A stretch of DNA of 64,000 bases from Candidatus Woesearchaeota archaeon (GTDB lineage: Archaea > Nanobdellota > Nanobdellia > UBA10117 > ARS21): assembly GCA_038128845.1 (NCBI GenBank), contig JAYPKL010000001.1, forward strand, positions 42,338 through 106,337, in the 5' to 3' direction. The notes beneath the pieces were generated by a model, which made no database searches, was not told the origin of the DNA, and was given only the letters and a program-made list of their open reading frames with translations. The translations under genes and the position numbers were made by a program. Within the stretch, counting starts at the first letter, position 1; each line of letters begins with the position of its first letter. Shown one piece after another: positions 29,089 to 62,399 of this stretch.

Positions 29089-29343
29089 ATGTCTAAATCA
29101 AAATCAAGCGAATTGTTGGGTAAAACAGTAGTTTCTAAATCTGGAAAAAGATTCGGATCATTATCTGATCTAATTTTTGAATCTCGGACTGGTGAATTAA
29201 TTTATTTAGCAATAAAAAGTCCAACAGATTATTGTAGAAGTTTGGAACTTGAAAACGATAAATTATCAGGTCTTTTAATTCCTTTTTCTGCAGTTATATC
29301 TACTGGAGATTTTGTAATTGTTGCAGAAGAAGATATTGTTTAA
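29089..29343 (+). CDS. small PRC-barrel-like protein (hypothetical)
   Basis: 84 aa. Pattern LLGKTVVSKSGKRFGSLSDLIF...GELIYL. A paralog lies at 40707..40967. Confidence 0.35.
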   Translation: MSKSKSSELLGKTVVSKSGKRFGSLSDLIFESRTGELIYLAIKSPTDYCRSLELENDKLSGLLIPFSAVISTGDFVIVAEEDIV

Positions 29344-29780
29344 AAAACGTTTAATATATCTTTGGATTGTTTTAGTAAGTAATCCGATCCATAATCAGAT
29401 AAATAAAATAATTTTGGTCGTCCATCAATTGAAGATACGTGTCCAGTTGTTTCTAATTCATTTAACTTATTACGTATAGTTCTCTCCGATTTTTTCAAAT
29501 TAAATGCTGCCTTAATTTGAATAGAAGATACAGCATAATTTGCATTTATTGCTTGACCTTGCTTCAACATTAATAATAATTGATTTGAACTGATACTTAA
29601 ATTTCTTGCCGCAAGAGGAGTTTCTTTCTTTTGAGGTTTTGAATTTAATTCAAGAATTTTTTCTAATAAAAATTGATATTTTGATTTCATGGTTTCTAAT
29701 TCTGAATTGGTTTTATCGAGTTTAGATTTTAATTTTTCAATATCTGACTTATGGTTATTAAGTATCTCGTAAACATCCAT
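29340..29780 (-). CDS. coiled-coil protein with C-terminal winged-helix-like domain (putative DNA-binding)
   Basis: 146 aa. N-terminal heptad-rich region and a C-terminal segment (ERTIRNKLNELETTGHVSSIDGRPKLFYLSDYG) resembling a wHTH. Shares the MDVYE N-terminus with 61685..62128. Confidence 0.4.
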   Translation of the reverse strand: MDVYEILNNHKSDIEKLKSKLDKTNSELETMKSKYQFLLEKILELNSKPQKKETPLAARNLSISSNQLLLMLKQGQAINANYAVSSIQIKAAFNLKKSERTIRNKLNELETTGHVSSIDGRPKLFYLSDYGSDYLLKQSKDILNVF

Positions 29781-29830
29781 AAAAAATCAGTTAATAAAAT
29801 TATTAAAATTGTTCCATTATTTCCAAAATA

Positions 29831-29853
29831 TACCCCTTTGTTTCCTATGGAAA
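29831..29853 (-). promoter_or_regulatory. origin-recognition-box (ORB)-like element, copy 1
   Basis: TACCCCTTTGTTTCCTATGGAAA. The minus strand reads TTTCCATAGGAAACAAAGGGGTA, which is a TCCA-N3-GGAAAC dyad followed by a G-string. Confidence 0.5.
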
Positions 29854-29893
29854 TACCTTTATTTCCTTTTTTGTGCCTAAAAATTTAATTAGT

Positions 29894-29907
29894 GGAAAAT
29901 TTTTTCC
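29894..29907. repeat. perfect 14-bp palindrome GGAAAATTTTTTCC between the two ORB copies
   Basis: Read directly from the sequence. Confidence 0.5.
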
Positions 29908-29913
29908 AATAAT

Positions 29914-29936
29914 TACCCCTTTGTTTCCTATGGAAA
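29914..29936 (-). promoter_or_regulatory. ORB-like element, copy 2 (identical 23-mer; 83-bp spacing; direct repeat)
   Basis: Identical to 29831..29853. Contains the TAG stop (minus strand) of the Cas4-like gene within its TCCTATGG core. Confidence 0.5.
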
Positions 29937-30620
29937 GTCTTTATCTCGATTGAAACATATGTCTTTAAATTCGCAGTAATTGCAAGCAAATGACTCTTGT
30001 CTTTCGGGAGGCGATTCAGTCTTTAGTGCATATGCCAAAGTGGTTCCTCTTGCTTCCAAATAATTTATCATATCTCTTTTTTCGATCTCATAAACTCTAA
30101 CTTCTTTAAGAGAAAAATAAACTATCTTTAATGCTTTAATTTGTGATTGTCTTAATGGATCAATCATACTGAAATAAGACTGAAGTTGTTTAACGTGTTC
30201 TTCTTTTGGTTCATTGGGAATTCTTTCAATAGTCTTAAATTCATACATAATATTGTCAGATAATACATCTACAAATCCTATTGCGGAAAAAAGTCCAAAA
30301 TCTTTCTTAAGAAAAACTTCGTTTTCATGTTCTTCCAAATGATCTTGAAAAAAATTATGAATTGCATGACCTCTCGAAAAAATCCATAATTTTTCCAAAG
30401 GAAGAGGTATTTCTTCAACTAAGTCGTAATAAGATCGCCTTATGCACGGTCCAGTTAATCGAGTAACTCCAAATCTAGGATTTCCTTCTCTTTTTTTCTT
30501 ACTTTTATTTCTTCCTGCAAGAAGCGCTTTTAATACAACAGGAGGGTAGTGTTCAAAATCTTGTGTTAAGACATCTTCAACGTCTCTTTCAACACCGTCA
30601 GGACACAATATTTTTGTCAT
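29928..30620 (-). CDS. Cas4/RecB-family PD-(D/E)xK nuclease with 4-Cys Fe-S cluster motif
   Basis: 230 aa. N-terminal Cys (ILCPDG), nuclease motifs IGFVDVL / EFK / QLQSY, and C-terminal C-x2-C-x5-C (CNYCEFKDIC). Overlaps the PolD DP2 stop by 4 bp. Confidence 0.6.
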   Translation of the reverse strand: MTKILCPDGVERDVEDVLTQDFEHYPPVVLKALLAGRNKSKKKREGNPRFGVTRLTGPCIRRSYYDLVEEIPLPLEKLWIFSRGHAIHNFFQDHLEEHENEVFLKKDFGLFSAIGFVDVLSDNIMYEFKTIERIPNEPKEEHVKQLQSYFSMIDPLRQSQIKALKIVYFSLKEVRVYEIEKRDMINYLEARGTTLAYALKTESPPERQESFACNYCEFKDICFNRDKDFP

Positions 30621-33600
30621 ATAAATTCACCGAGTCCTTTTTGTTTAGTTAATTCTTTTCCAAATACAGAATCTATTCTTTTTTGTAATAAAACTATGGT
30701 TTCTCTCAAATAAGGCGATACTCCTTCTATTTTCATTAATTCGTGTGTAGCTTCAATATATTTTTTTATTGATCCTTCGCTTATTGTGTAAATTAATTTT
30801 GGATTTTTACATGAATTACATATTCCTGATAAAGGCATTCTTCGATATTTTTCGTTGCATTTTGGACATCTAAATTGTTGCATAGTAAATTTACGTAAAT
30901 TTCCTTTTGTATCTCTTATGAAGTGTCCGTTTACTATTAATTCTGCTAATTTTGGTAAACTAACTGCTCGGATTAATTTGGCCAATTCCACTTGTCCAGC
31001 CATTTTTTCTGTCATAGTGGGCAATGTTTTATATGCAGAAACTAAGACTCCTTCATTCAGATTTGAAACCGGATGTGTGAATAGATGATTTTCGTATTGA
31101 TCAATTGTATCCAGTGTGTCTTTTATTGTTCTTATATTTATATCCCATGGTTCTTTCATTGCTCTAGCACATTCATAAAATTCTAAAGGATATGAATCAA
31201 CAATATTGAGATCGTAAACTTCATCATCAACTTCCTTTGAATTCAAGATTGTTGTAATAACTAAAGGTGCATCCATTGAACGCGAACCTCTTTGATCCGG
31301 TAAAAAATCTCTTGAAAAATTTAAGAATGCATCTAACATGAGCATAATCGAAGTTTCTTCTCCGTCTAAATCTCTTCTCTGTGCGGCATGCCAATATGGA
31401 TGTGCAAGTAAAGCAGAAATTTTAGAAAATCCAATGATCCTTCCGGCAATACCTGCAGAAGTATGTGGCGCGAGTCCGATAATCATTCTGCCAATTAAAT
31501 CTTCTTTTACGGCAATATTATAGTATGCTTTTTGATTATAGAGTCTTGTTAATTCTTCATCAACAAAGTTTGCAGTTCGTAATAAAACTTCAGATCCTGA
31601 TTCAGATCCTAGTTGATCTCCGTCCGGTATTATGACATCTTGCGGAAATATTTCAATTAACTGATTGGCGTCTGTTATTGGGTTTCCTAAATAATCTGAT
31701 TCATAACCTAATTTTTTTAATTTTTTTAGAGTTAATCCTATCTCTATTGGTTTAAAATGAGTAACGCCAAGTTCAGTTCCATCATATCTTATTGTTCCGT
31801 CTTTATTAACTCTTAAAGAAAATTTAGCTCTCAATATGCCTTTAAGAGGGTGTTCTGCATATCTGTGTTTATTTAACGTTCTCTCAACACCTTTTATTAG
31901 TTGAGGTATTTCGTCATCCCATTCGGATATTGTTTTTTTATATAATTCAGATATTTGATATTTGCGTTTTTCAAATGCCCGGACGCGAATGTCTTTCGGA
32001 GGTTGATCGTATTTTATTTTTGTTTTTGGATCAACATATTTTTGTGAAGTATTAAACGAGTCGCAATTTTCACATTTTTTATATAACGACTGTTTATTAC
32101 AATCCAAACAATATAGTAAAGGAAAATCCGAATAAACGTATCCCTTCTTGACTACATCTACAAAATTGTTCATTCTACCTCCTTCCTTCCCTACTGGAAA
32201 TAAAAAATTTGGCGATCCTTTAAGATCTCTCATTTTTGCTTTCTCCGGTCTGCCCATTCTTGCGCCTATTGCTGTACCCCATAAATCTTCGATAGTATAT
32301 TCTGAAAAATCATTAATTAAATTCAAAGAATTTGTATAATTTTCTACATTTGCATCAGTTAGATTTTCATTTAGATTTAATTTTAATGTTTTTAGAATTT
32401 TTTCATCAAATTCAATCTCCGAATTTATATTTCTATGTTCGGCGCCAATTAATTCAATTGATCTTTTTATTGAATCAGTTAACTCCTTTTTTTTGTATAA
32501 GTATTTTGTTAAATCGACCACTTCTTTTGGTGAAATTTCATTCCAGTAAAATATTAATTCTGGATGTAAAGGAATATTGTAGTTTTTTGAAATATTTAAT
32601 AATAATTCATATTCTATTTTTTGTGGTAAAAATGAATCAAAAAAATTTGAATTTAAATTATTTTTTTGTATAAACTCGCTTTTGTTGTCTATTTTTGATT
32701 TTAATATATTGAACCACCATTCCGGACAAAATCCCGGTGGAGCAAGGAAATGATTATTTTCTAAAAATTCTCCTTGGGAAATTAAAATATCTCCCAAAAA
32801 TAAAATCTCAGATATTTCTTTAGTAATTTCGTTTGCTTCCGAAACTGTTTTTGGTTTTACAACAGAACCGTCTTTAAGTTTCAATATTGGTCCTTCGATT
32901 GAATCGCATGCAGTTAAGGATGTTGATTTTCCGGGTCTTTCGACTCTTAATTGAGTTCCTATTGCTAAGTAATCTTTACAAACTGCCATAGTTATCGGAG
33001 ATATTGCCCAAGAACCATGTCCTGTCAATCTAGATCTACCATAACGTAATCTAAATCCTCCTTTTCGCAGAGGGTGAGTAAATATTGGACGTCCCGCAAC
33101 TATTTCAGAGATATAAGAATAGTTTGGTTTTAATTTTGACTCGTCTTTTTTTGAATCAGATCTTGAGTGTATTTTTTTCTTTAATTCCAAGAATTCTTCC
33201 AGCCAATTCCAATCCGATAAATTAAAATCGGAGCCCCATTCCTTTATTTTTTTAAGTACTTTTGCACCTTTTAGAGGAATACAATCCGTTAATAATAATG
33301 CCATTCCGCCTCTTATTCTATCTGTCTCTATACGATCTAAGTTCTTGAAATTTGAAACAGATAATTTTGATGTTGGATCTCCGTTTAGTTCGACAGATAA
33401 GTTTGAAATGATAAATTTCATTTCTTCTTCGGTAGGCTTGTATTGTTTTCGCTCAACTCGATCATAATAATCGGTAACTTCCGTATAAAATCTTCTTATT
33501 TCGTCTTCCGAAGGATCGTATTTATCGATGTTATGTATTTTTCTAACGTAATCAGTTATTACTACTGTTACTGCAGATGCAGTTGCACCTCCCCCTCGAA

Positions 33601-34060
33601 TTGGACCTGCAAAATACATTGCTAAGTATTTTTTTCCATCTCTTCTTTTTTTAAAACGAATATCGATTAAACCCTCTAAGGGTGCTGAAACTGTGCCTTG
33701 CGTTATGTATGCAAATCCTGTTCTTATTCCAATATTTATTGCAGTTATTTGATCATCAAATTTGCAAAATTGTTCCGTAGATATTTCTTCCGCTAATTTT
33801 AGTGCAACTCTCCAATCTCCAAAACCAAATTCGGTTTCTAATTCGTTAATTCTTTTTGGGATTCCTTTTCCGATGATATTGGGAGATATTGATCCCATAA
33901 TTGCTTCAACTCTTTCTGAAACAGATGCTGCTATAGGAATATCTGATTCAAGTTGTGGATCTATTCCTGTTTTTTTAGCTAAGTTTGCAAGACTGTTGAG
34001 TTCGTGTGTTTTTTCATTCATAAAATTAAAATATTTTTGAATAGGTTGTGATGCAATCAT
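30617..34060 (-). CDS. DNA polymerase II (PolD) large subunit DP2
   Basis: 1147 aa with no intein. Assigned by length and architecture, C-terminal Zn-finger cysteines (CPKCN...CNSCK), and position next to orc1/cdc6 and DP1. Confidence 0.85.
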   Translation of the reverse strand: MIASQPIQKYFNFMNEKTHELNSLANLAKKTGIDPQLESDIPIAASVSERVEAIMGSISPNIIGKGIPKRINELETEFGFGDWRVALKLAEEISTEQFCKFDDQITAINIGIRTGFAYITQGTVSAPLEGLIDIRFKKRRDGKKYLAMYFAGPIRGGGATASAVTVVITDYVRKIHNIDKYDPSEDEIRRFYTEVTDYYDRVERKQYKPTEEEMKFIISNLSVELNGDPTSKLSVSNFKNLDRIETDRIRGGMALLLTDCIPLKGAKVLKKIKEWGSDFNLSDWNWLEEFLELKKKIHSRSDSKKDESKLKPNYSYISEIVAGRPIFTHPLRKGGFRLRYGRSRLTGHGSWAISPITMAVCKDYLAIGTQLRVERPGKSTSLTACDSIEGPILKLKDGSVVKPKTVSEANEITKEISEILFLGDILISQGEFLENNHFLAPPGFCPEWWFNILKSKIDNKSEFIQKNNLNSNFFDSFLPQKIEYELLLNISKNYNIPLHPELIFYWNEISPKEVVDLTKYLYKKKELTDSIKRSIELIGAEHRNINSEIEFDEKILKTLKLNLNENLTDANVENYTNSLNLINDFSEYTIEDLWGTAIGARMGRPEKAKMRDLKGSPNFLFPVGKEGGRMNNFVDVVKKGYVYSDFPLLYCLDCNKQSLYKKCENCDSFNTSQKYVDPKTKIKYDQPPKDIRVRAFEKRKYQISELYKKTISEWDDEIPQLIKGVERTLNKHRYAEHPLKGILRAKFSLRVNKDGTIRYDGTELGVTHFKPIEIGLTLKKLKKLGYESDYLGNPITDANQLIEIFPQDVIIPDGDQLGSESGSEVLLRTANFVDEELTRLYNQKAYYNIAVKEDLIGRMIIGLAPHTSAGIAGRIIGFSKISALLAHPYWHAAQRRDLDGEETSIMLMLDAFLNFSRDFLPDQRGSRSMDAPLVITTILNSKEVDDEVYDLNIVDSYPLEFYECARAMKEPWDINIRTIKDTLDTIDQYENHLFTHPVSNLNEGVLVSAYKTLPTMTEKMAGQVELAKLIRAVSLPKLAELIVNGHFIRDTKGNLRKFTMQQFRCPKCNEKYRRMPLSGICNSCKNPKLIYTISEGSIKKYIEATHELMKIEGVSPYLRETIVLLQKRIDSVFGKELTKQKGLGEFI

Positions 34061-34098: not shown

Positions 34099-34428
34099 TT
34101 GAAAAATATACATATGAGAGGTAGACCTACGTTTAGTCCAATAAGAAATAATTTAGTTGAATTAATTTATTTTATGGGTAGTTCATATGGCTATGATATA
34201 TATAAAAAGTATATTGAAATTTTTCCAAAAACAACTATGCGTTCAATTTATTATCATTTAAATAAAGGATCCAAATTAGGTGTATTTGTAGTTTCTAAAG
34301 TCGAAGAAGTAAAGGGCGATTATTCTTGGGGCATTGGCGTAAGAAGAGTAAATTTCAAATTAGGTCCTAATGCTCAACCTAAAAAAGATTTGATGATTTT
34401 GAAAAAATTAAAATCAATTAAAAAATAA
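34099..34428 (+). CDS. small hypothetical protein, possible winged-helix DNA-binding protein, abutting oriC
   Basis: 109 aa. Basic, with an HTH-like segment (GYDIYKKYIEIFPKTTMRSIYYHLNKG). The stop is 2 nt before the left ORB. Confidence 0.35.
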   Translation: MKNIHMRGRPTFSPIRNNLVELIYFMGSSYGYDIYKKYIEIFPKTTMRSIYYHLNKGSKLGVFVVSKVEEVKGDYSWGIGVRRVNFKLGPNAQPKKDLMILKKLKSIKK

Positions 34429-34430
34429 CT

Positions 34431-34456
34431 CTCACCCTTGCGTTTCTTGTGGAAAA
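34431..34456 (-). promoter_or_regulatory. ORB (origin recognition box), left, inverted orientation
   Basis: The minus strand reads TTTTCCACAAGAAACGCAAGGGTGAG. Confidence 0.5.
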
Positions 34457-34558
34457 TTATTTTATTTATTATAATTTTATAATAAAATATATTAATTAAT
34501 TACTATATTGAAAATAAATAAAATAAAAAATTTTTTTGATATATTATATACAATATAA

Positions 34559-34585
34559 TTCCATAAGAAACAAAAGGGTAGGGGG
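34559..34585 (+). promoter_or_regulatory. ORB, right, forward orientation
   Basis: TTCCATAAGAAACAAAAGGGTAGGGGG. Confidence 0.55.
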
Positions 34586-34645
34586 TTAAAAATTAAAAAA
34601 TTAAGTTTAATATCAAATTAATCAACTAAAATTTTATAAGGTACA

Positions 34646-34658
34646 TTTCCTATGGAAA
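34646..34658. promoter_or_regulatory. mini-ORB dyad TTTCC-TAT-GGAAA overlapping the orc1/cdc6 start codon
   Basis: Same 13-mer core as the ORB copies at 29.8 kb. The ATG at 34652 lies inside it. Confidence 0.45.
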
Positions 34659-35863
34659 TTATGGATTCAGATTTAGACAATTTATTTGATGAATATATTT
34701 CAAAAAAATCTATCTTTTCAAATAAAGAAGCATTGCTTTTACGTTATTTTCCAGAAAATATACCTCATCGATCCGAACAAATAAAAAAACTAGGTATGAT
34801 TTTAGCACCAGCATTAAAAAATAACAAACCATCAAATTTATTTATATATGGAAAAACTGGAACAGGTAAAACTCTGTGTACACAATTCACTATACAAAAA
34901 TTGTTAGAAAAAAGTAAATTAACTGGAGCCAAAATAAAGTATGCTTACTTAAATTGTAAATTAAAAAAAATTGCAGATACCGAATACAGAGTAATCGCCA
35001 GCTTAGCAAAAGAATTGGGCGAAGACGTTCCAGTTACGGGATTACCTACTGACGAAGTTTACAACATATTTATTAATAAAATAGATTCAGAAGATCAAAT
35101 TATTTTTCTTGTGTTGGATGAAATTGACAGATTAGTTAAAAAAAGCGGCGACGAAATACTTTACTCTTTGACTCGAATTAATTCGGAATTAAAAAAGTCA
35201 AAAATATGTTTAATTGGAATATCAAACGATGTTCGTTTTATTGAAGATGTTGATCCGCGGGTAAAAAGCTCTCTTGGTGAAGAAGAATTAATTTTTCCGC
35301 CTTATAATGCGCTGGAATTAAAAGACATCTTAAAAGAAAGAAGCGAAATTGCATTTTCAGAAGATTCTTTGGACTCAGCAGTTTTAGCAAAATGTGCCGC
35401 ATATGCTGCAAAAGAACACGGAGATGCAAGACGTGCACTAGATTTACTCAGAGTTGCAGGTGAAGTTGCAGAAAGAAGTAATGAAGAAATTGTAAAAATG
35501 GAACATATCAAAAAAGCAGAAGAAAAAATAGAAATTAATCGTATTTTTGAATTAGTTAAAACATTACCATCACAATCAAAATTAATTTTATATTCCATAT
35601 TTAATTTATCTGAAACAATAACAAAACTTGAAACGGGCGAAATTTATGAAGAATATAAGAACTTATGCAATATAAACAATAGTGCAATATTAACTCAACG
35701 AAGAATATCTGATTTAATCTCCGAGTTAGATATGCTCGGCCTAATAAATGCAAGATTAATCAGCAAAGGCAGACACGGAAGAACCAGAGAAATTTATTCA
35801 ACAATACCTTCAGATCTAAAAGAAATTTTAATGAAAGATTTAAAATCCGAACTAATGTTATGA
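34652..35863 (+). CDS. orc1/cdc6: Orc1/Cdc6 replication initiator (AAA+ plus winged helix)
   Basis: Walker A IYGKTGTGKT, Walker B LVLDEIDRL, sensor residues, and a C-terminal wH (LGLINARLISKGRHGRTREI). Confidence 0.9.
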   Translation: MEIMDSDLDNLFDEYISKKSIFSNKEALLLRYFPENIPHRSEQIKKLGMILAPALKNNKPSNLFIYGKTGTGKTLCTQFTIQKLLEKSKLTGAKIKYAYLNCKLKKIADTEYRVIASLAKELGEDVPVTGLPTDEVYNIFINKIDSEDQIIFLVLDEIDRLVKKSGDEILYSLTRINSELKKSKICLIGISNDVRFIEDVDPRVKSSLGEEELIFPPYNALELKDILKERSEIAFSEDSLDSAVLAKCAAYAAKEHGDARRALDLLRVAGEVAERSNEEIVKMEHIKKAEEKIEINRIFELVKTLPSQSKLILYSIFNLSETITKLETGEIYEEYKNLCNINNSAILTQRRISDLISELDMLGLINARLISKGRHGRTREIYSTIPSDLKEILMKDLKSELML

Positions 35864-62295: not shown

Positions 62296-62399
62296 GGGCG
62301 TATAGCTTAGTCTGGTAGAGCGCTGGTCTTATAAGGCCACTTCCGAAATGGAAGATCTGAGTATACCAGAGGTCCCAGGTTCAAATCCTGGTTCGCCCA
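62296..62399 (+). tRNA. intron-containing tRNA with anticodon UAU (tRNA-Ile, AUA-reading); ~30-nt intron at canonical 37/38 position (about 62334..62363)
   Basis: Acceptor GGGCGTA/TTCGCCC (one U-U mismatch), D-arm GCTT...GAGC, anticodon stem CTGGT/ACCAG with loop CTTATA^(intron)T, T-arm CCAGG-TTCAAAT-CCTGG, discriminator A. The intron contains the hairpin CTTCC-GAAAT-GGAAG. Confidence 0.6.

Follow-up and report, generated by a model that had tools for sequence, protein, structure and literature searches.

The stretch of DNA analysed here, called the window in what follows, comprises 64 kb of a marine Candidatus Woesearchaeota metagenome-assembled genome. It encodes the replication initiator Orc1/Cdc6, the PolD large subunit DP2, a Cas4-like nuclease and a 146-residue coiled-coil/winged-helix protein, and the subject of this text is a pair of identical 23-bp repeats, TACCCCTTTGTTTCCTATGGAAA, located between the last two genes at about 29.8 kb. 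A previous reading made from the letters of the window (the sequence-only reading) had reported this direct repeat, and the + strand indeed has two exact copies of it (29831-29853 and 29914-29936). The - strand reading, TTTCCATAGGAAACAAAGGGGTA, shows a perfect TTCCA-N2-GGAAA dyad and, after it, a G-string, which is the form of an archaeal origin recognition box (ORB). The genes and elements at the site are the following:

29340..29780, - strand: gene of the 146-residue coiled-coil/winged-helix protein (AlphaFold2, AF2, mean predicted local distance difference test score, pLDDT, of 78.6)
29800..29808, - strand: TATA-like element TTTTAATAA, 20-28 nt 5' of the ATG at 29780
29811..29825, - strand: two direct TGGAA half-sites, TGGAAATAATGGAAC, which begin 5 nt past ORB-B and abut the TATA-like element
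29831..29853, - strand: ORB-B, the promoter-proximal box, an exact repeat 51-73 nt 5' of the ATG of the 146-residue protein gene, with 0 mismatches to the generic ORB
29893..29908, no strand: everted near-palindrome TGGAAA-AATT-TTTCCA, with 6-bp arms and a 4-bp spacer, 5 nt after the ORB-A G-string
29914..29936, - strand: ORB-A, the identical second box, 83 bp farther upstream than ORB-B, at -134 to -156 from the start of the 146-residue protein gene
29928..30620, - strand: Cas4-like PD-(D/E)XK nuclease, last gene of the DP2 operon (Pfam Cas_Cas4, 1.5e-07)
30617..34060, - strand: PolD large subunit DP2 (Pfam)

The 23 bp are the fully conserved centre of a larger repeat unit that has otherwise diverged (59 nt, 76% identity, spacing of 83 bp). 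The dyad core TTCC-A-N2-GGAA(A) is perfect in both copies, TTCCATAGGAAA, and the G-string 3' of the dyad reads GGAAAC-AAA-GGGG in each. With up to 3 mismatches allowed, 100 dinucleotide-preserving shuffles give an expectation of 0 matches to TACCCCTTTGTTTCCTATGGAAA, and the sole further match in the window is found on the - strand at 34558-34580, with 3 mismatches. The TAG stop codon of the Cas4-like gene (29928-29930) forms the dyad centre of ORB-A, so that the stop does lie inside the second copy as the sequence-only reading had it, and the overlap of 4 nt between the Cas4-like and DP2 open reading frames (ORFs) is consistent with its assignment of the Cas4-like gene as the last of the PolD-DP2 operon. 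The "perfect palindrome" described between the copies, GGAAAATTTTTTCC (29894-29907), is imperfect, having GGAAAAAATTTTCC as its reverse complement; the actual element is the slightly longer TGGAAA-N4-TTTCCA at 29893-29908. Being statistically not unusual by itself, this element was not retained as a signal of its own. A dimeric protein might use it as an operator, and elements resembling it are found in the related loci L007 (TGGAAGAATTTTTCCG) and L011 (TGGAAAGATTTTTCCA). On the gene side, TTTTAATAA would serve as the promoter of a leaderless or short-leader mRNA for the 146-residue protein. Rfam analysis of the window reports tRNAs only, and no RNA family at the 29.8-kb site.

AF2 analysis of the 146-residue protein reports a long helix (residues 11-47), a disordered linker, a MarR/TubR-like winged helix (residues 65-127) and a C-terminal helix, which bears out its earlier description as a coiled-coil/winged helix-turn-helix (wHTH) protein. 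Foldseek returns PDB matches with the TubR, MarR and PadR families and with pNOB8 AspA; an Orc1-type winged helix is absent from the top 50 fold matches, which are of generic MarR, PadR and TubR type. Pfam does not return any match for this protein, and its family is narrow, with five clusters of relatives at 95, 66, 66, 52 and 37% identity.

A scan of the window with a generic ORB consensus, TTCCANNGGAAAYNNNGGGG, at up to 2 mismatches returns exactly four sites in 64 kb against 0.12 expected, all of them within 4.8 kb. Both 29.8-kb boxes have 0 mismatches, while the other two sites, at 34435 (- strand) and 34559 (+ strand), have 2 mismatches each and belong to the origin. Related loci contain 2-4 ORB sites each, located at the origin or at the gene, with the exception of one 2-mismatch site in L216; the rarity of the box is thus that seen in the 64-kb window and in these related loci of 13-21 kb, in which it does not behave as a general promoter motif. 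The two origin sites stand beside orc1/cdc6, where the recurrence of the box core at 34.4-34.7 kb had been noted by the sequence-only reading, and its 13-mer is present at 34443-34455, 34558-34570 and 34646-34658. This second site is organized as follows:

34433..34455, - strand: origin ORB on the side away from cdc6, TTTCCACAAGAAACGCAAGGGTG in the - strand reading, with an imperfect dyad and 2 mismatches, oriented as both 29.8-kb boxes
34456..34557, no strand: AT-rich duplex unwinding element, 96% AT, with a free energy (dG) of -0.90 kcal/mol per bp
34558..34580, + strand: origin ORB on the cdc6 side, ATTCCATAAGAAACAAAAGGGTA, with 2 mismatches, inverted relative to the other three ORBs
34646..34658, no strand: palindromic mini-ORB TTTCCTATGGAAA, spanning the first ATG of orc1/cdc6, 3' of the TATA-like TTTTATAA (34629-34636)
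34652..35863, + strand: Orc1/Cdc6 initiator of the Orc1-1 clade (Pfam; PDB 2QBY_A, 8e-109, and 2V1U, 8e-102)

The AT-rich element is located directly 5' of orc1/cdc6, flanked by the inverted ORB pair, and the least stable 80-mer of the entire window falls in it (34454-34533, z = 3.8). The 34.5-kb site beside orc1/cdc6 is hence predicted to be the true origin, with the textbook archaeal layout. The mini-ORB TTTCCTATGGAAA, which sits between TTTTATAA and a second in-frame ATG of orc1/cdc6 (34661), is probably an autoregulatory site; its placement points to autorepression by Orc1 and to the second ATG as the start codon, and a mini-ORB at the cdc6 start is found in L001 and L011 too. Between DP2 and the origin, the window encodes a 104-residue protein (34114-34428) without a Pfam family, which has relatives at 74% identity in L135 and 41% in L115 and always abuts the origin in the window's clade.

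When a degenerate ORB pattern, TTCCATNGGAAAYRANGGGGT, is scanned over species-representative genomes, at least 120 loci are returned. The matches listed are nearly all archaeal and from many phyla, bacteria accounting for 6 out of 80 listed titles. Cdc6 is encoded within the 8-kb stretch in 43 of the at least 120 loci, and in ~30 of them no more than a few hundred bp separate box and cdc6; among the matches listed, such cdc6-adjacent boxes occur in Methanomassiliicoccales, Methanosarcinales, Bathyarchaeia, Thaumarchaeota, DPANN and others. The ORBs and mini-ORBs of Pyrococcus have a TTCC/GAA core in common, e.g. TTCCAGTGGAACT (PMC1904270). Because they match the consensus, because the same class of box is found at cdc6 origins across archaea, and because the Pyrococcus core is common to this class, the 29.8-kb repeats are taken to be genuine perfect-consensus ORBs, and the earlier recognition of an archaeal origin recognition box holds. 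Regarding the initiator, the proteins nearest to the window Orc1 are S. solfataricus Cdc6-1 (2QBY_A) and A. pernix ORC1 (2V1U), both of which were crystallised on ORB DNA. Its winged-helix region is conserved and it is assigned to the ORB-binding clade; encoded 4.7 kb away, it most likely binds the 29.8-kb boxes. Since the repeats are ORBs and the window Orc1 is of the ORB-binding clade, two roles offered by the sequence-only reading are reasonable: a second Orc1-binding cluster, of the same ORB class that flanks the AT-rich element beside cdc6, and an Orc1-regulated promoter, the latter being better supported than its other options.

The same degenerate scan reveals a much wider association between this box and a gene. 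Pace-, Woese- or Nanoarchaeota contribute 38 of the at least 120 loci, and in these nearly all boxes are in the sense direction and in one frame inside an ORF of 200-300 residues. The ORF comprises, in order, an N-terminal coiled coil (MDxIKEAFxKVKxDI...), a low-complexity linker, the box, translated as SxGNxGV, and a C-terminal winged helix. As a precaution against ascertainment bias, a box-independent sample was obtained by a metagenome search that used only an alignment of the winged-helix domain (9 sequences; seeds L[TS][EQ]SSIRDY and [KE][ED][IVL]R[LFS][KT][FV]K[RKQ]L). At least 524 relatives are returned by this search; 80 loci entered the sample, with 78 testable genes. The sequence NTT TCC ANN GGA AAY NNN GGG GYT is present in 77 of these 78 genes, 33-87 codons 5' of the winged-helix domain and always on the sense strand. 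The serine is encoded by TCC (77/77), the first glycine by GGA (77/77) and the second glycine by GGG (76/77), while residue 2 is I, T, S, K or N and residue 5 is E, Q, G, R, K or D. Codon choice is thus frozen at the fixed positions of the ORB, whereas the residues encoded at its degenerate positions change freely, a pattern that is read as constraint on the DNA of the in-gene box. A conserved SxGNxGV peptide is ruled out as the cause by these frozen synonymous sites and by the residues that vary at degenerate ORB positions, and is also countered by the non-coding copies of the same DNA in the window lineage. The box-encoded peptide is located in a disordered linker (AF2, pLDDT <50).

A box at the homologous position is found in 117 family loci, and the family itself amounts to at least 1,811 clusters (90% identity), none of them named except by automatic HTH (helix-turn-helix) labels. 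Its C-terminal domain returns matches with HTH_11 and HTH_24 and weak ones with DnaD_N and HTH_36, together with MarR-like fold matches. Of 74 unique sequences, 60 carry an (ACAG)n microsatellite (n at least 3) immediately past the G-string of their in-gene box. Other repeats are found at this position, (CACT)n in L070, (AGCA)n in L107 and others elsewhere, and because the repeats encode different peptides (TDRQ, SLTH, SKQA), the microsatellite looks like a DNA-level feature. A change by one unit would shift the reading frame, and L139 looks like such a frameshifted copy. In L095 (5578-5670), a canonical family gene contains two in-frame boxes 72 bp apart (…SIGNEGVPTDNYAFYGLKGSFIEGSIGNEGVPTDRQTD…), the in-gene counterpart of the duplications in the window (83 bp) and in L135 and L015 (74-75 bp).

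The family gene has a characteristic place in the genome. Its canonical layout is Cdc6(-), ~500 bp with a 93-100% AT stretch and an ORB(+), then PRC-barrel(+), p140(+), p88(+) and the gene with its box(+). The in-gene box is a direct repeat of the nearest origin ORB, 1.5-2 kb farther out, and is oriented like it in 14 of the 14 loci in which that ORB is detected. Its dyad is always perfect, while the origin boxes are usually imperfect; in every multi-kb context examined the sole zero-mismatch ORB is the gene-associated one, and in every locus examined the gene-associated box is the best consensus site. In some lineages, insertions widen the distance between box and origin to 4-6 kb, and in the GW2011_AR13-type lineage the gene lies 3' of DP1-DP2, ~11-12 kb from where cdc6 would be expected. 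At all of these distances from cdc6, ~2 kb to ~12 kb, the gene retains its box. The origin-adjacent string of genes, strongly conserved, uncharacterised and seen in L018, L030, L137-L215, L218 and L219, is formed by a PRC-barrel protein (~86 residues), a 140-residue protein (MxxIGFNFxK...), a winged-helix-like protein of ~90 residues (MKISxxKKxKISEQI...) and the box gene; Pfam analysis does not return any family for p140 and p88.

The window appears as a rearranged derivative of this layout. DP2, the Cas4-like gene and a small gene separate the boxes from the origin, the window lacks p140 and p88, and the PRC-barrel gene has remained a neighbour. With respect to both the origin and the winged-helix gene, the boxes have retained their polarity, but they are duplicated and upstream of a shorter protein instead of inside it, before the ATG and not in frame with it, the distance between TCC codon and ATG being 71 nt. 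The proximal box of the 66%-identity lineage (P0062) is still in the frame of the gene. The 146-residue protein and the large family have the same architecture (long helix, linker, winged helix) and the same MarR-like fold class, and their genes have a PRC-barrel neighbour and an associated box in common. A tblastn comparison of this protein with the large family does not return any match, and two hhalign runs report only a weak alignment of the N-terminal coiled coil (25-54% probability).

In the window's own clade, the contigs of relatives show the gene order Cas4-like gene, gap, 146-residue protein gene and PRC-barrel gene, with SPP, DP1, Cdc6, a small protein and DP2 upstream as well where the contig is sufficiently long. 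The gap between the Cas4-like and wHTH genes contains two boxes at a spacing of exactly 83 bp in the 66% lineage, two boxes at 74-75 bp in the 51-52% lineages (L135 and L015), and the gene-proximal box only, together with TGGAAA half-site arrays, in the 36-37% lineages. The ORB-B core is invariant in 7 out of 7 aligned intergenic sequences, as is a TGGAA located 6-7 nt past ORB-B, and a TTTTAT ~25 nt 5' of the ATG is conserved in the relatives. ORB-A is found in 5 of the 7 related sequences, TGGAAA half-site arrays being present instead in L011 and L084. The box pair is conserved in four lineages of the clade, its two copies co-varying within lineages, and the boxes are 91, 83 and 80% identical to those of the window against 63, 50 and 48% for the rest of the spacer (146-residue protein: 66, 51 and 52%).

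The association between box and gene appears ancient and phylum-wide, and the 29.8-kb repeats are most likely the local, duplicated, intergenic form of a gene-tied off-origin ORB of Woese-, Pace- and Nanoarchaeota, most lineages of which have a single in-frame box in the linker-coding part of the gene. As to its function, we consider there to be an even chance that the box is an off-origin Orc1 site, the one of highest affinity, which is tied to the coiled-coil/wHTH gene and couples its expression to initiator occupancy. Orc1 bound to these boxes, its predicted sites of highest affinity, would gate the winged-helix gene at the level of transcription. The window boxes would then form a promoter-proximal operator, the TGGAA half-sites and TTTTAATAA lying between ORB-B and the ATG, and in the relatives the in-gene box would form an intragenic roadblock for Orc1-gated transcription. 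In either arrangement, expression of the winged-helix protein would track the level or state of the initiator. We infer both that Orc1 binding alters transcription of the winged-helix gene and in which direction. More tentatively, and with a probability that we place clearly below even, box and gene may form a dedicated initiator-regulator circuit in which Orc1, bound in or before the gene, gates a DNA-binding factor acting on replication or the cell cycle, or else a cis-acting replication-control unit, as is lambda ori in gene O.

Several points weigh against an operator coupled to gene expression. A position inside the gene is odd for a transcriptional operator, and an RNA-level role is conceivable for a box that is always on the sense strand. 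The homology of the 146-residue protein to the large family is tentative, the hhalign probabilities given above concerning the coiled-coil part only. All contexts examined are found within ~12 kb of the cdc6/PolD island, so that gene-tied and origin-tied readings are not fully separated. Lastly, most boxes are only 1.5-2 kb from the origin and repeat the orientation of its nearest ORB, for which reason an origin-linked role fits equally well. Such a role is the main rival: the boxes would serve the nearby origin as an Orc1 reservoir or titration site, in the manner of datA, or as the anchor of a looped higher-order origin complex; such roles have been proposed for the ORB clusters in Thermococcales dp1 and downstream of Haloarcula oriC2. 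The location of the boxes in or beside the gene would then be accidental and since frozen. We regard this role as less probable than the gene-tied reading, with which it is compatible. The constant orientation in all 14 loci with a detected origin ORB speaks for it, as does the rank of the gene-associated box as the best consensus site in every locus, and it has precedents established by chromatin immunoprecipitation, electrophoretic mobility shift assays and genetics (PMC1904270; PMC4010727). However, the distance to the origin (1.5 to ~12 kb) and the side both vary while the position in the linker is constant (77/78), a pure titration site would be expected to drift elsewhere over such deep divergence, and only one or two boxes are present.

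The gene might instead regulate itself, its coiled-coil/wHTH dimer binding the box, the TGGAAA elements or both, with the likeness to ORBs due to competition or shared recognition with Orc1. The predicted MarR/TubR-like fold is that of a dimeric DNA-binding protein, and TGGAAA half-sites and the everted palindrome accompany the boxes in the window lineage; binding of the winged-helix protein to the TGGAAA elements, though not to the ORBs, is plausible. For the boxes themselves, autoregulation is improbable, as an identical box stands beside cdc6 in archaea without this winged-helix gene family and the palindrome is insignificant alone. Furthermore, the box is unchanged across lineages in which the winged-helix recognition helices are unalignable, which points to a binder that is itself conserved, Orc1, rather than to the protein encoded by the gene.

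Some archaea have multiple origins, and two high-quality ORBs could mark another one firing at ~29.8 kb, the "accessory origin" of the sequence-only reading. We consider this very improbable. No unwinding element is found at 29.8 kb, where AT content is 76% in the intergenic region and 78% between the boxes, in a window of ~72%, against 96% at 34456-34557; the dG per bp is ~ -1.13 kcal/mol, and the best 80-mer nearby reaches only the 95th percentile of the window. The boxes are direct, on the same strand, and do not form a convergent pair, and in relatives the box is within coding sequence. Because it is devoid of an unwinding element and its boxes are in direct orientation, the 29.8-kb pair is, by these sequence features, not a second origin. 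Least probable of all is an Orc1 roadblock or terminator for the PolD-DP2/Cas4-like operon, also put forward by the sequence-only reading: an overlap between ORB-A and the Cas4-like stop codon is seen in the window and L007, but it is not conserved, which weakens the proposal, as L015 and L135 have the box past the stop, L011 and L084 have no Cas4-side box, and most DPANN boxes are nowhere near DP2 or Cas4.

The gene-tied, off-origin ORB can be compared with several known systems. The ORBs and mini-ORBs of oriC1-type origins (Sulfolobus oriC1, Pyrococcus oriC, Aeropyrum ori1) exhibit the same TTCCA-N2-GGAAA dyad followed by a G-string, and, as at those origins, the window box class flanks an AT-rich element beside orc1/cdc6, with an initiator of the Orc1-1 clade. 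In contrast, the 29.8-kb copies are 4.6 kb off the origin, devoid of an unwinding element, in direct orientation and located in the promoter of an unrelated gene. Off-origin ORB clusters, coding ones included, are already known. The Thermococcales dp1 gene contains a second ORB/mini-ORB cluster, to which Cdc6/Orc1 binds in vivo as well as in vitro (Matsunaga et al. 2007, PMC1904270). Like the sites described here, it comprises conserved off-origin ORBs a few kb from oriC in the cdc6/PolD island, where location in coding sequence is possible. The DPANN sites differ in their host gene (coiled-coil/wHTH), in the side of the origin and in their clade, and they are made up of one or two predicted full ORBs, intergenic in the window, whereas the dp1 cluster comprises one ORB and many mini-ORBs.

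In Haloarcula hispanica, an ORB cluster downstream of oriC2 regulates negatively, titration having been partly tested (Wu et al. 2014, PMC4010727). Like this cluster and E. coli datA, the window boxes are extra initiator-type sites near an origin that are not an origin; unlike them, they are only two in number and tightly linked to one gene. The datA locus provides extra initiator-binding sites and is not itself an origin. Another comparison is Sulfolobus Orc1-2, an Orc1/Cdc6 paralogue that regulates transcription upon DNA damage (PMC9738581). There, as is proposed for the window, promoters away from origins are targeted by an Orc1-family protein, but Orc1-2 is a non-initiator paralogue whereas the window site is a full initiator-type ORB. 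Orc1-2 reportedly uses a different short promoter motif. Lastly, the phage lambda origin is located in gene O, its iterons lying in the linker-coding region of the gene for a winged-helix DNA-binding protein. The DPANN box is similarly in frame in the part of a winged-helix gene that encodes a flexible linker, and the family has weak DnaD_N and HTH_36 matches; in contrast to lambda ori, it has no adjacent AT-rich region and is not supported as an origin or as the site of its own protein.

A DPANN-wide ORB frozen in the linker of a regulator gene, or its intergenic duplicated variant, is not described in the literature searched, in which no mention of ORBs in DPANN archaea was found. To our knowledge, no initiator-regulator module of this kind has been described for archaea, and replication control in DPANN is, as far as we know, essentially unstudied because the organisms are uncultured and their genomes tiny. 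The gene-tied ORB provides a sequence-predictable anchor in this respect, as each examined lineage has one best-consensus off-origin initiator site at one uncharacterised regulator gene, and the frozen codons give a direct readout of the strength of selection on the in-gene box. A coupling between initiator and winged-helix protein thereby becomes a concrete, testable hypothesis, and the Thermococcales finding of ORBs in coding sequence is extended to a second, distant clade. For origin-prediction tools the sites call for caution, since off-origin ORBs of this kind would be called origins.

Other features of these loci are worth recording. Recurrent neighbours of the box gene, in lineages L039, L048, L077, L090, L097, L126, L216, L218 and L219, are an 840-880-residue helicase (…LHPLVKEWFFSxF…), a 200-226-residue protein that begins with MFxWLFGKKKE and has a family-like coiled coil, and, a few kb 3' of the box gene, a serine resolvase/recombinase pair. 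In the window, GC skew was rejected as an indicator of the origin: it follows gene orientation, at +0.14 for coding strands, and 29.8 and 34.5 kb are inseparable by it. Between 2540 and 29040, where nearly all genes are on the + strand and transcribed towards the 34.5-kb origin, the skew of +0.1 to +0.2 mirrors this gene strand bias; these genes would be head-on to forks leaving that origin. One of the four tRNA matches in the window, at 62296-62399, covers 104 nt against a model of 71 positions, which suggests that this tRNA gene contains an intron.

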